From NCBI RefSeq assembly GCF_044324875.1, contig NZ_CP172185.1: a stretch of DNA of 64,000 nt, one strand, 5' to 3'. Positions 1-4,044 of the stretch are shown here, piece after piece (positions within the stretch are counted from its first letter, which is position 1; every line of letters starts with the position of its first letter). The notes beneath the pieces were generated by a model. It saw only the letters and a list, made by a program, of their open reading frames with translations, made no database searches and had not been told where the DNA came from. The position numbers were made by a program, and so were the translations under genes. This DNA comes from Escherichia coli (lineage in GTDB: Bacteria; Pseudomonadota; Gammaproteobacteria; Enterobacterales; Enterobacteriaceae).

Positions 1-2855
1 AGCAGGTGAGCCGTAATTATCATCTTCGCGGGCGCATTCTGCAGGTGCCGTCGAACTATAACCCGCAGACGCGGCAATACAGCGGTATCTGGGACGGAAC
101 GTTTAAACCGGCATACAGCGATAACCCGGCCTGGTGTCTGTGGGATATGCTGACCCACCCGCGCTACGGCATGGGGAAACGTGTTGGCGCAGCGGATGTG
201 GACAAATGGGCGCTGTATGTCATCGGCCAGTACTGCGACCAGTCGGTGCCGGACGGCTCTGGTGGCACGGAGCCGCGCATCACCTGTAATGCCTGGCTGA
301 CCACACAGCGTAAGGCGTGGGATGTGCTCAGTGATTTCTGCTCGGCGATGCGCTGTATGCCGGTATGGAACGGGCAGACGCTGACGTTCGTGCAGGACCG
401 GCCGTCGGATAAGGTGTGGACCTATAACCGCAGTAATGTGGTGATGCCGGATGATGGCGCGCCGTTCCGCTACAGCTTCAGCGCCCTGAAGGACCGCCAT
501 AATGCCGTTGAGGTGAACTGGAGTGACCCGGATAACGGCCAGGAGACGGCGACAGAGCTTGTGGAGGACACGCAGGCCATTGCCCGTTACGGTCGTAACG
601 TCACGAAGATGGATGCCTTTGGCTGTACCAGCCGGGGGCAGGCACACCGCGCCGGGCTGTGGCTGATTAAAACGGAGCTGCTGGAAACGCAGACCGTGGA
701 CTTCAGCGTGGGTGCTGAAGGGCTTCGCCATGTACCGGGCGATGTCATTGAAATCTGTGATGATGACTATGCCGGTATCAGCACCGGTGGTCGTGTGCTG
801 GCGGTGAACAGCCAGACCCGGACGCTGACGCTCGACCGTGAAATCACGCTGCCATCCTCCGGTACCACGCTGATAAGCCTGGTTGACGGAAGTGGCAATC
901 CGGTCAGCGTGGAGGTTCAGTCCGTCACTGACGGCGTGAAGGTAAAAGTGAGCCGGGTTCCTGACGGCGTTGCCGAGTACAGCGTGTGGGGGCTGAAGCT
1001 GCCGACGCTGCGCCAGCGCCTGTTCCGCTGCGTGAGTATCCGTGAGAACGACGACGGCACGTATGCCATCACCGCCGTGCAGCATGTACCGGAAAAAGAG
1101 GCCATCGTGGATAACGGGGCGCACTTTGACGGCGACCAGAGCGGCACGGTGAATGGTGTCACGCCGCCAGCGGTGCAGCACCTGACTGTCGAAGTCACCG
1201 CAGACAGCGGGGAGTATCAGGTACTGGCCCGCTGGGACACGCCGAAGGTGGTGAAAGGCGTGAGTTTCATGCTTCGCCTGACCGTGGCAGCGGATGACAG
1301 CAGTGAGCGGCTGGTCAGCACGGCCCGGACGACGGAAACCACATACCGCTTCAGGCAGCTGGCGCCGGGGAACTACAGGCTGACAGTCCGGGCAGTAAAT
1401 GCCCGGGGGCAGCAGGGAGACCCGGCGTCGGTATCGTTCCGGATTGCCGCACCGGCAGCGCCGTCGCGGATTGAGCTGACGCCGGGCTATTTTCAGATAA
1501 CCGCCACGCCGCATCTTGCGGTTTATGATCCGACGGTACAGTTTGAGTTCTGGTTTTCGGAAAAGCGGATTACCGATATCAGGCAGGTTGAAACCACAGC
1601 CCGTTATCTTGGTACCGGAAGTCAGTGGCTTGTCTCCGGCCAGAATATTAAACCTGGCCATGATTATTACTTTTATATCCGCAGTGTTAACACTGTCGGT
1701 AAATCGGCATTCGTGGAGGCAGTCGGTCGGGCGAGTAATGATCCTGCCGGTTACCTTAATTTTTTCAGGGGGGCGATAAATAAAACGCATCTGGGACGGG
1801 AGATCAATGAACGCATTGATGCCTCTGCACGGCGCACTGAAGTTGAGCAACTGGAGAATGCGATTAACCGCGAAATGACGCAGCTGGAGAATGCGATTAA
1901 CCGCGAAATGACGCAGCTGGAGAAAGATGTGAGGCAGCGTGCGGAGCGTGATATCGCAGAGGTGACGAAAAAAATCACGGCGTCTGAAAACAGCATAACG
2001 GAACTGGTGGCGAAAAAGAGCGGTGAACAGTCGCTGGCCATTGCGAAAGTCGACAGGAAAGTTGACAGCGTGAGCAGTGAAATCCGGCAGACAGTGAGCA
2101 GGAGCACGGAGGAGAACAGCCGACAGATAGCGCAGGTCAGGCAGTATGTTGATGATAAAAGTGCGCAAATAAGTACTGTTGTGGCGAAAAAGAGCGGTGA
2201 ACAGTCAATGGCCATTGCGGAAGTTGACAGAAAAGTTGACAGGATGGGCAGCGAAATCCGGCAGACAGTAAGCAGGAGCACGGAGGAGAACAGCCGACAG
2301 ATAGCGCAGATCAGACAGTATGTTGATGATAAGGGAAGTCAGATCACACAGAGCACGGATAAAAAACTGGGATCCTGGAATGCCAGCATTGAGCAGATAC
2401 AGAAAGTTCAGGAGGACACGCGCCGGAACCTGAACAGCATGTGGGCTGTGAAGCTGCAGCAGACACGGGATGGACGTCTCTATATTGCAGGTATTGGTGC
2501 CGGAATCGAAAATACGTCTGACGGAATTCAGAGTCAGATCCTGATGCAGGCAGATCGTATTGCGATGATTAACCCGGAAAATGGCAATACAACACCTTTG
2601 TTTGTGGCTCAGGGTGATCAGCTGTTCATGAATGATGTTTTCATGAAAAAACTGACCGTGGATTTTGCCAGAGTGACGGGAGATATCCGGTCAGATAATT
2701 TTCATTCCGGTAGTCCGGGGTGGCGTTTATCAAGAAACGGCAGCCTTGAAATTAACTCAGGAAGGCCCGGCGCAGGCCGCCTGTTTTTCAATGGCGAGCG
2801 AATCGACGTATATGACGATAACAATGTGTTAAGAGTACGACTGGGGAGACTGTAA
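1..2855 (+). CDS. Phage host specificity / tail tip protein J, 3' portion (5' end lies outside the window)
   Basis: Open frame runs from the window edge to a stop at 2855; 949 aa shown with fibronectin-III-like segments and the conserved C-terminal region of lambdoid J proteins; followed by the usual stf/tfa-type genes. Confidence 0.85.
1851..1916. repeat. 33-bp perfect tandem duplication inside J (encodes [11 protein letters not shown] twice)
   Basis: ctggagaatgcgattaaccgcgaaatgacgcag occurs twice back to back. Confidence 0.9.
2007..2354. repeat. 174-bp tandem duplication inside J (two 58-aa units VAKKSGEQS...)
   Basis: Two consecutive 58-aa units with about 85-90 percent identity are visible in the J translation. 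Confidence 0.85.
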
Positions 2856-3115
2856 TGTTCGGAGTCCGGGTATGGCGCAAAGGGCGCCTTGTGACACATG
2901 AAATAAACCCAACAGGGGTGCTGGATGTGATCACTGAAGGGACGGGGCAGCGTTCTTATACTCCTTTGCAGGGCTGGCGTCTGGAAGTCTGTTCACCGGC
3001 CATTCTGATTAACGGTCAGGGAAGTCATACCAGTGCCAGTGTATCCGGCTGGACAGTGCACTATGCCAACACAAGCTGGTTAAGACCCGTGCTGGTCATG
3101 ATAAGGGGGATCTGA
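2855..3115 (+). CDS. Hypothetical phage protein (86 aa), translationally coupled to J
   Basis: ATG overlaps the J stop (TAATG); position after the tail tip gene. Confidence 0.5.
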   Translation: MFGVRVWRKGRLVTHEINPTGVLDVITEGTGQRSYTPLQGWRLEVCSPAILINGQGSHTSASVSGWTVHYANTSWLRPVLVMIRGI

Positions 3116-3777
3116 TGTTTGCACTTAAATTAACTGATGAGCGGGGGAGAGAATGGATATCACCTGTTGCGCCGCCACTGAACCTTGTGCGCCGTTTTCA
3201 TTTCACACTGAGTGCGCGTGATGCGGTGATGCAGTTTATCGACACCGGGGTGCCGACGAATTATCGTTGCGTGATTTTTATTAAACAGATAAGCGGTAAT
3301 CAGTCCTTCCATGGTGAAATGGTTCAGCTTAACGGTACCTGGCAGTATGACATTTTCAGCGCTGGTACAGGGCAGGAGCCGGGCATGGAACAGGACAGCA
3401 CATATGTTGTTTATGTTTTTGCCAACATGGTGAATGTATGGCCGCAATGGGGAATACAGTTGTGCGACAGTCATGGCAGGGTGGTCTGGAACACGGAAAT
3501 GCTGCCACTGGAAGTAAAAATGACGCGAATATGGGAAAAGGATGTACCGATCAGTGTGGGACATGATGTGGCCGTAATGCCGGGGTGTACCCAGTGGACG
3601 ACAGTTCAGGAAGGGGAGAGTTATTACTGGTATACCGCCAGTTTTAATGCCAGAAACTCACAGTTATGGCGTCAGTCAACTTTTGCTGAAGATAACGTAG
3701 CGGCGCCCAATGATAATTCAGGTGTTGTTAATAACCTCTGTTATTACATAAATGCAGAAATTTATGATGCGTACTGA
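3115..3777 (+). CDS. Hypothetical phage protein (220 aa), translationally coupled to the upstream ORF
   Basis: TGATG stop/start overlap; 220-aa ORF with no antisense competitor of similar length. Confidence 0.55.
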   Translation: MFALKLTDERGREWISPVAPPLNLVRRFHFTLSARDAVMQFIDTGVPTNYRCVIFIKQISGNQSFHGEMVQLNGTWQYDIFSAGTGQEPGMEQDSTYVVYVFANMVNVWPQWGIQLCDSHGRVVWNTEMLPLEVKMTRIWEKDVPISVGHDVAVMPGCTQWTTVQEGESYYWYTASFNARNSQLWRQSTFAEDNVAAPNDNSGVVNNLCYYINAEIYDAY

Positions 3778-3798
3778 TAGTTATGTTGAGGGCATGTA

Positions 3799-4044
3799 AT
3801 GAAAATAATCGTCTGCACTTTTTTGCTGTTTCTTGTATCAGGTTGCGCGGGGTACCGTTCCGTTACGGAGAGAGTCCGGTGCACCGGTGTGCTGAGTCCC
3901 GGGGTTTTACAGCGAGCTTATACGGTAGATCTTACAGGGAAAATAGAAACGAAAAGCGGCACTGTGTATAAAGTATCAGCTCCGAGATTTTATGGTCAGT
4001 GGGTGAGTGAAGATATGTTTACGAAAGTTTCGTGCGTGAAGTAA
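3799..4044 (+). CDS. Small phage lipoprotein, possibly a Cor-like superinfection-exclusion protein
   Basis: Signal peptide with lipobox LVSGC; 81 aa; sits between the tail tip and tail fibre genes where cor lies in phi80/N15/HK022-type phages. The Cor assignment is from position and size only. Confidence 0.5.
   Translation: MKIIVCTFLLFLVSGCAGYRSVTERVRCTGVLSPGVLQRAYTVDLTGKIETKSGTVYKVSAPRFYGQWVSEDMFTKVSCVK

Follow-up and report, generated by a model that had tools for sequence, protein, structure and literature searches.

In phage phi80, the central tail fibre J (gp21) is followed by gp22 (100 aa), gp23 (224 aa), Cor (77 aa), an annotated terminator and a tail-fibre gene. A comparable series, ST33 (J), ST32, ST31 and cor, is found in phage T1, whose record notes link it to gp21–23 and Cor of N15 and to HK022, and the same order is kept in phages Fostie and Fraca. 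In the Drexlerviridae and related siphoviruses, the variable locus that follows gpJ has been tied to receptor specificity, with matching exclusion proteins adjoining it (PMC8594841; bioRxiv 10.64898/2026.04.02.716166). Here, we analysed a 64,000-nt stretch of Escherichia coli DNA (RefSeq assembly GCF_044324875.1, contig NZ_CP172185.1), hereafter called the window, in which the J gene of a prophage is followed by three open reading frames (ORFs) encoding proteins of 86, 220 and 81 aa (ORF86, ORF220 and ORF81). This arrangement is that of phi80, gene for gene. Phi80, N15, HK022, Fraca, Fostie, T1 and the window also have in common the overlapping stop and start codons, a terminator behind cor and, next to it, a side-fibre gene, and all three proteins fall into the same PHROG families. 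We regard it as probable that this part of a lambda-like prophage serves host recognition, as a cassette built in the manner of the J–gp22–gp23–cor cassettes of phi80, N15, HK022 and T1.

The original prediction had described the region as two ORFs of unknown function, translationally coupled to J and followed by a small lipoprotein gene. The coordinates, the TAATG and TGATG overlaps and the lipobox that it gave were all found in the sequence (Table 1). The stop codon of J (TAA, 2853–2855) shares its last base with the start codon of ORF86 (ATG, 2855–2857; junction ctgTAATGttc), and the start codon of ORF220 (ATG, 3115–3117; junction atcTGATGttt) lies in the same way on the last base of the stop codon of ORF86 (TGA, 3113–3115); 21 nt separate the end of ORF220 (3777) from the start of ORF81 (3799). 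Each of the three starts is preceded, at 5–6 nt, by a Shine–Dalgarno sequence (GGGGAG, AGGGGG and GAGGG, respectively). Because the overlaps are seen again in homologous cassettes of more than 10 unrelated loci, and because all three ORFs are conserved as proteins (identity to the nearest relatives of 57–63% for ORF86, about 50% for ORF220 and 48% for ORF81), the arrangement is more than chance would produce. The proposed coupling of the two ORFs to J is likewise borne out by comparison: the overlap pattern is conserved across the family, and the homologous operon of Pseudomonas phage DEV is co-transcribed and displays a polar effect of an upstream deletion, for which translational coupling has been suggested as a possible cause (PMC12892993). 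Downstream of ORF81, a GC-rich hairpin (4080–4095) followed by a T-run, CCCGCAATTTTGCGGG then ATTATTTTTT, separates the cassette from the side-fibre gene at 4117. A promoter scan returned a single weak site, within ORF220, and none before ORF81, with fewer sites than in shuffled sequences. Two further ORFs, an antisense one (3160–3564) and an overlapping one (3783–3971), were set aside as by-products of the mechanical ORF listing.

Table 1. The J-linked cassette: features, positions in the window and proposed roles
Feature	Position	Strand	Proposed role
J (reading frame 6-2855, 5' end beyond window start), 3' end, last ~66 aa of the central tail fibre	2656-2855	+	Putative docking tail
ORF86, gp22-like small protein	2855-3115	+	Putative adaptor between J tip and receptor-binding protein
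ORF220, gp23-like two-domain all-beta protein	3115-3777	+	Putative receptor-binding protein
ORF81, Cor-like outer-membrane lipoprotein	3799-4044	+	Putative superinfection exclusion factor matched to the receptor-binding protein
Intrinsic-terminator-like hairpin and T-run	4080-4105	+	Closes the J-to-lipoprotein transcription unit

It had also been stated that none of the three proteins could be recognised by sequence. Profile searches recognise all of them (PHROG 557 for ORF86, 425 for ORF220 and 27799/1119 for ORF81), and the comparison with Cor and phage tail accessory proteins that had been proposed as a check identifies ORF86 as gp22-like, ORF220 as gp23-like and ORF81 as Cor-like. The strongest match is that of ORF220 to PHROG 425, the family of N15 gp23, phi80 gp23 and T1 gp31 (E 3.3e-27, residues 1–218 of 220 on profile positions 3–224 of 224). 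Pairwise identities are low, namely 20–21% to phi80 gp23 (E 1e-7), 20% to T1 gp31 and, for ORF86, 20–29% to its counterparts. Aligned end to end with 38 family members, ORF220 retains the invariant residues Y100, F102, A153, I212 and Y217. It has the layout of the family, directly 3' of a partner of ~75–100 aa at a J locus, the two genes overlapping at stop and start or lying a few bases apart; in most loci the pair lies downstream of J, and in orkinos, Poky and JenP2 it is convergent to J. Pfam and PADLOC gave no match for any of the three proteins, and nothing meaningful emerged when their sequences were compared with all solved structures. Structural alignment, in contrast to sequence search, assigns ORF220 the fold of a solved receptor-binding protein (RBP), that of phage Oekolampad (PDB 9rpt), at 8–11% identity. 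In addition, the ORF220 family profile matches gp54, the genetically proven RBP of DEV, with 96% probability (E 4e-9). ORF220 has neither a signal peptide nor a hydrophobic segment (maximum 19-residue Kyte–Doolittle value 0.88). In the BFVD collection, the ORF220 fold was found in 22 predicted proteins (E <= 1e-3) of phages infecting Pectobacterium, Proteus, Xanthomonas, Acinetobacter, Providencia, Pseudomonas and Achromobacter, nearly all of them uncharacterised or unnamed and one labelled as a bulb-type lectin domain protein. Judging from these models, the receptor-binding fold seems to be widespread and mostly unannotated.

ORF86 matches PHROG 557 over residues 2–73 (E 2.8e-4) and is 57–63% identical to the small genes of two other E. 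coli loci, L007 and L017. An alignment with 11 relatives gave near-invariant residues G3, G10, P19, G31, Y35, G65 and T67, and the N-terminal motif of the gp22 family, M-x-[YF]-G-[IV], is present. No Pfam match, signal peptide or hydrophobic or membrane segment was found (maximum 19-residue Kyte–Doolittle value 0.61). A Lom/Ail-type or other outer-membrane protein, as the PHROG label of ORF86 would have it, was rejected, given that there is no N-terminal hydrophobic segment and no Pfam match. Since signal peptides and hydrophobic segments are lacking in both ORF86 and ORF220, the membrane-protein labels of their PHROGs appear to be inherited annotation. Profile–profile comparison aligned the ORF86 family with the N-terminal domain of the ORF220 family (hhalign probability 92–96%, E 5e-7 to 6e-9), and by this measure the former is a paralogue of the latter, which fits an adaptor packing beside the RBP. 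Taken together, the fold match, the homology to DEV, the paralogy and the literature point to ORF86 and ORF220 as the adaptor and the RBP of the tail tip, an identity of the two 'unknown' ORFs that the original prediction missed.

The tail of J may be the site at which these two proteins dock. J is a mosaic: window bases up to ~1767 match 4610 of 5426 complete E. coli genomes at about 93%, and some genomes match up to about 2650, whereas the 3' end of the gene is covered in only 14 of the 5426. Of 11 loci compared, 10 keep the terminal motif I-x-V-[YKRF]-D-x-x-G-x-L-R-V-x-x-G in their tip proteins (the eleventh, a truncated fragment at locus L009, did not align), as does DEV gp56, and the tail as a whole is 64% identical to that of L007 and 41% to that of gp56. 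Within the coiled-coil part of J, tandem duplications were observed at 1847–1924 and 2007–2332 (33-nt unit, 2.4 copies, and 174-nt unit, 1.9 copies; 92–97% identity).

A motif like that at the end of J opens ORF86, ORF220 and the second domain of ORF220. When the C-terminal hairpin of J was compared with the N-terminal motif of the pair by hhalign, the same register was obtained three times, at probabilities of 4–43%; because these are low, kinship between the hairpins stays no more than an idea. AlphaFold2 was run with 15 paired sequences on a single chain in which Gly-Ser linkers connect three J tails, ORF86 and ORF220, and the models were judged by pTM and pLDDT. The pTM was 0.62, with only 577 of 886 residues ordered. 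A value so close to the attainable maximum implies that the five pieces form a single rigid body in the top model. The hairpin h-x-h-[YWF]-[DN]-x-x-G occurs once at each J chain end and three times in ORF86 plus the two-domain ORF220. One may toy with the thought that adaptor and RBP cap the trimeric fibre through this hairpin as a pseudo-threefold plug, and that the allele uses a receptor other than FhuA, BtuB or LptD; we hold this combined proposal to be speculative and, on balance, rather unlikely. If it were true, the plug would explain the transfer of the trio between long-tailed lambda-like and short-tailed 933W-like phages.

Alternatively, J itself might carry the receptor specificity, with ORF86 and ORF220 serving at the tip in an accessory capacity, for example as assembly chaperones or fibre caps, and making no contact with the receptor. 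Indeed, the distal domain of J sets the receptor in lambda and in its relatives using TolC, LamB or NupG (PMC8594841; bioRxiv 10.64898/2026.04.02.716166), and the J tail of the window co-varies with the cassette. However, J ends here in a short docking-type tail, like DEV gp56 and the fibres of T1 and phi80, rather than in a lambda-like receptor-binding domain, and the solved protein whose fold ORF220 shares inserts into its receptor. Moreover, mutations in DEV gp54 restore growth on an lptD mutant and, as suppressors, map the receptor contact to the homologue of ORF220 (PMC12892993). We consider this alternative improbable.

A second alternative, which we judge still somewhat less probable, is that ORF86 and ORF220 are not virion proteins at all, but envelope-associated helpers of the lipoprotein, the trio forming a superinfection-exclusion 'Cor cassette'. 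In a 2026 study of the T1-like phage KanT1, no structural match was obtained for the T1-type pair and an exclusion role was assumed, the pair being associated with cor and with FhuA-using phages (PMC13164509). Neither protein, however, has the signal peptide or hydrophobic segment expected under this explanation, and both are translationally chained to J. In DEV, both small genes are essential and gp54 is present in the virion, the status of gp55 in this respect being uncertain (PMC12892993). The pair is also found with no called or annotated Cor-type lipoprotein gene beside it in VT2-Sakai, in loci L010, L014 and L015 and in P400. This occurrence, the fold match to the solved RBP and the homology to DEV argue against the assumption made for the T1-type pair; accordingly, where the literature is divided between receptor binding and exclusion help by the two proteins upstream of cor, the evidence presented here favours receptor binding.

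The original prediction placed the lipoprotein in the slot of Cor, and a distant Cor homologue is indeed what ORF81 proves to be. Its N-terminus, MKIIVCTFLLFLVSGC, has a lysine at position 2, a hydrophobic core, the lipobox VSGC at residues 13–16 and alanine at position +2, so that there is no inner-membrane retention signal. ORF81 aligns end to end with Cor of phi80, T1 and Fostie. Comparison with these proteins and with those of orkinos and L017 gave the invariant residues G15, C16, C28, F74 and C79, in accordance with the pattern of the Cor alignment, i.e. the lipobox Gly-Cys, a second cysteine ~12 residues further on, a phenylalanine, and a cysteine two or three residues before the C-terminus. 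The features of the family, namely a lipobox signal peptide, a length of about 75–90 aa, two further conserved cysteines and a position adjoining the gp22/gp23-like pair at a J locus, are all present. The best profile match is to PHROG 27799, a small unnamed family (E 1e-8), followed by PHROG 1119, that of Cor (E 8.2e-7), and identities amount to 48% with the L017 lipoprotein, 32–33% with phi80 Cor and 27% with T1 Cor. Because its score of 28.4 bits on the NCBIfam model NF047972 (lamb_exclu_cor) lies below the curated equivalog cut-off of 31, and because the best match is the unnamed PHROG 27799, ORF81 was filed as a putative Cor-like homologue and not as an equivalog of the FhuA-blocking Cor. 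No match was found in Pfam or PADLOC; the sequence search of all solved structures was empty, and ORF81 is therefore without sequence similarity to any solved exclusion lipoprotein. That it might be another lysogenic-conversion lipoprotein (Bor-like serum resistance or an envelope modifier), as could be argued from its small size, its divergence, the sub-threshold Cor score and the missing PADLOC match, is very improbable in view of the end-to-end Cor alignment, the conservation of the lipobox and both extra cysteines, the identity of the best PHROG matches (the small unnamed family and Cor itself), and the fact that it stays in the position of Cor and goes along with the receptor-binding pair even where this pair occurs in 933W-like prophages.

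In many phages, the pair is accompanied by a lipoprotein showing the cysteine pattern of Cor, although this lipoprotein varies in position. It follows the pair in phi80, Fostie, Fraca, the window and loci L016–L018, lies on the opposite strand in T1, precedes the pair in orkinos and Poky, and stands between J and the pair in SaltyDalty. The linkage of an exclusion lipoprotein to these two genes can be understood if the pair is the tail-tip adaptor and RBP. In three other loci (L009 6696–6953, minus strand; L011 6760–7056 and L012 1556–1852, both plus strand), the usual Cor slot holds a protein of 85–98 aa with a Sec signal peptide and the Pfam domain TonB_C. This protein could be a different exclusion factor, mimicking the C-terminal domain of TonB on a TonB-dependent receptor.

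These considerations suggest the following sequence of events. ORF86 and ORF220 would be produced as soluble virion proteins from the message of J through coupled translation. We infer that they are present in the virion in 1:1 stoichiometry, one copy of each docking on the J trimer at the very end of its C-terminal tail. Contact with an outer-membrane protein receptor would be made by ORF220, while ORF86, a stand-alone copy of the N-domain of ORF220, would serve as adaptor. ORF81 would undergo export and lipidation and be sorted to the outer membrane, on its inner face. By analogy with Cor, T5 Llp and Rtp45 on LptDE, it most likely attaches to this receptor on the periplasmic side and thereby prevents docking of the RBP. 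Such exclusion activity would keep phages of the same specificity out of the lysogen or infected cell and spare progeny from loss on debris.

Several points weigh against this interpretation. Among relatives with a known receptor, those studied by experiment are at most about 25% identical to the present allele. For T1-like phages, the pair upstream of cor has been assumed to consist of membrane proteins that aid exclusion (PMC13164509), and the cryo-EM (cryogenic electron microscopy) map of T1 lacks a resolved fibre end, the pair thus being unseen on a siphovirus tip (PMC11945409). The PHROG match of ORF86 is weak, ORF81 falls short of the Cor equivalog cut-off, and the four remaining fused-chain models were poorer than the top one (pLDDT 57–44). 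Finally, there was no promoter-like site just 5' of ORF81 in the scan to account for its expression in a lysogen.

As to the receptor, members of the family and its fold relatives are known to use FhuA (T1, phi80), BtuB (some Tempevirinae) and LptD (DEV, Oekolampad) (PMC13164509; PMC8594841). LptD, which the fold match and DEV would suggest, was rejected as an assignment for the present allele, given that the family also includes FhuA and BtuB users and that identities are about 10–20%. FhuA, brought up in the original prediction and suggested by phi80 and T1, is neither supported nor excluded at identities of 20–33%, which are below the level of shared specificity. An identity above 30% has been used in the literature to group alleles of one receptor (bioRxiv 10.64898/2026.04.02.716166); being less than 30% identical to any cassette of known receptor, the allele is a candidate for a new receptor specificity.

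The module is rare. It is present in nine of the 5426 complete E. coli genomes, at 99.7–99.9% identity, and a megablast search of the region against 50,697 phage records gave no match; no phage record contained a relative of ORF220 above 28% identity. A word-indexed protein search reached no more than two clusters with ORF220 and three with ORF81, and exhaustive HMMER searching was needed; among 1.84 billion representatives it found 41 relatives of ORF220, one at 50% identity and the other full-length ones at no more than ~38%. Owing to the divergence of the family, the genomic context of relatives was collected gene by gene. Relative P0003 (50% identical to ORF220) lies 3' of a long J in an E. 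coli contig, locus L007. Relative P0002 (52%) was found within 933W-like short-tailed E. coli prophages (L016–L018), in which a 421-aa Phage_Tail_Tip protein is followed by a small gene, a 220-aa gene, an 81-aa lipoprotein gene and the hok/gef toxin gene hok (e.g. L017 4476–7357). The trio of these prophages, the closest relative of that in the window, occupies the position of orf63, orf64 and lom in VT2-Sakai. Identities to L017 are 63% for the small protein, 52% for the RBP and 48% for the lipoprotein, as compared with 29%, 20% and 32–33% to phi80; the J tail, adaptor, RBP and lipoprotein diverge roughly in step.

The annotation of the region is incomplete. In the RefSeq genome record, ORF220 is hypothetical, ORF81 is left without annotation, and ORF86 is begun 36 nt too late, at a GTG downstream of the ATG at 2855 (74 aa; window positions 2855–2890; L001 8192–8416). 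The ATG at 2855, as given in the original prediction, is the real start, as shown by the N-terminus M[FY]G[IV]xVW that relatives keep. The small gene of L016–L018 has also been shortened by the gene caller, and there the conserved start MYGIQVWRKG marks the overlapping ATG as real. Feature lists suggest that the lipoprotein gene is likewise without annotation in the other eight carrier genomes. Three genes that RefSeq calls hypothetical or leaves uncalled thereby gain a proposed function.

Beyond the terminator, the side-fibre gene (4117–5445) contains collagen-like Gly-X-Y repeats (4582–5172, 45-nt unit). Its product is 442 aa long in the window and 601 aa in strain LH50-c (L001 9418–11223), the prophages being otherwise near-identical; the difference in length possibly stems from repeat number. 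The side-fibre gene is followed by a DUF4376 fibre-assembly gene and, directly after it, by three ORFs on the minus strand (512, 115 and 133 aa; 6287–8620) that are IS66-family-like by the look of the sequence alone; in strain LH50-c, YadA-like and sigma-factor-like genes are found at their place.

To the original prediction, whose observation and two inferences hold, the present analysis adds the identity proposed for the adaptor and RBP, a corrected annotation, the connection with DEV and with the solved structure from Oekolampad, and the occurrence of the trio on 933W-like short tails. It does not change the current understanding of how such modules work; the module is of an ordinary kind, in a rare and divergent version. 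In comparison with the phi80/T1 group, which uses FhuA, the pair is only 20–29% and the lipoprotein 27–33% identical. The fibre of DEV is the only experimentally dissected homologue of the cassette. As in the window, the gene of a J-like protein (gp56) precedes those of gp55 (99 aa) and gp54 (223 aa), with stop and start codons overlapping, and gp56 is similar to the J tail over its last 60 residues (41% identity); gp55 shares the N-terminal motif and matches the ORF86 family over its first 16 residues only. In the published model, the gp56 trimer bears one copy each of gp54 and gp55 at its tip (PMC12892993). In contrast to the prophage of the window, DEV is an N4-like podovirus that uses LptD, and it has no lipoprotein gene between gp54 and gp53.

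The fold of ORF220 is that of the RBP of Oekolampad (Bas18), which belongs with Rtp44 and the exclusion lipoprotein Rtp45 (bioRxiv 10.1101/2025.07.07.663478; PDB 9rpt). However, the RBP of Oekolampad has about 309 aa as compared with 220 aa for ORF220, identity is 8–11%, and the sequence search of the PDB gave no match between the two. Membership of ORF220 in the Oekolampad/Rtp44 family was therefore rejected, the fold being the same but the length different and the identity far below that shared by members (>30%), and the LptD specificity of Oekolampad cannot be transferred to the cassette. Phage T5, like the window, pairs an RBP at the tip, pb5, with a periplasm-facing lipoprotein, Llp, which alters the receptor and so abolishes binding of pb5 (PMC9586334). 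ORF220 is unrelated to pb5, a single protein of large size, whereas Cor has been predicted to have an Llp-like fold (PMC13164509). In 933W and VT2-Sakai, finally, the Phage_Tail_Tip protein orf62 is followed by orf63 and orf64, which belong to the same two families as ORF86 and ORF220. Unlike in the window, the pair is followed in VT2-Sakai by lom instead of a Cor-like gene. As fibre shaft, phages of this type have a 421-aa protein, 33% identical to J of the window over the last ~66 aa and most clearly so in the terminal hairpin motif. The presence of the trio on lambda-like as well as 933W-like tail tips clearly exemplifies the passage of receptor modules between phage morphotypes, which bears on the host range of Stx phages.

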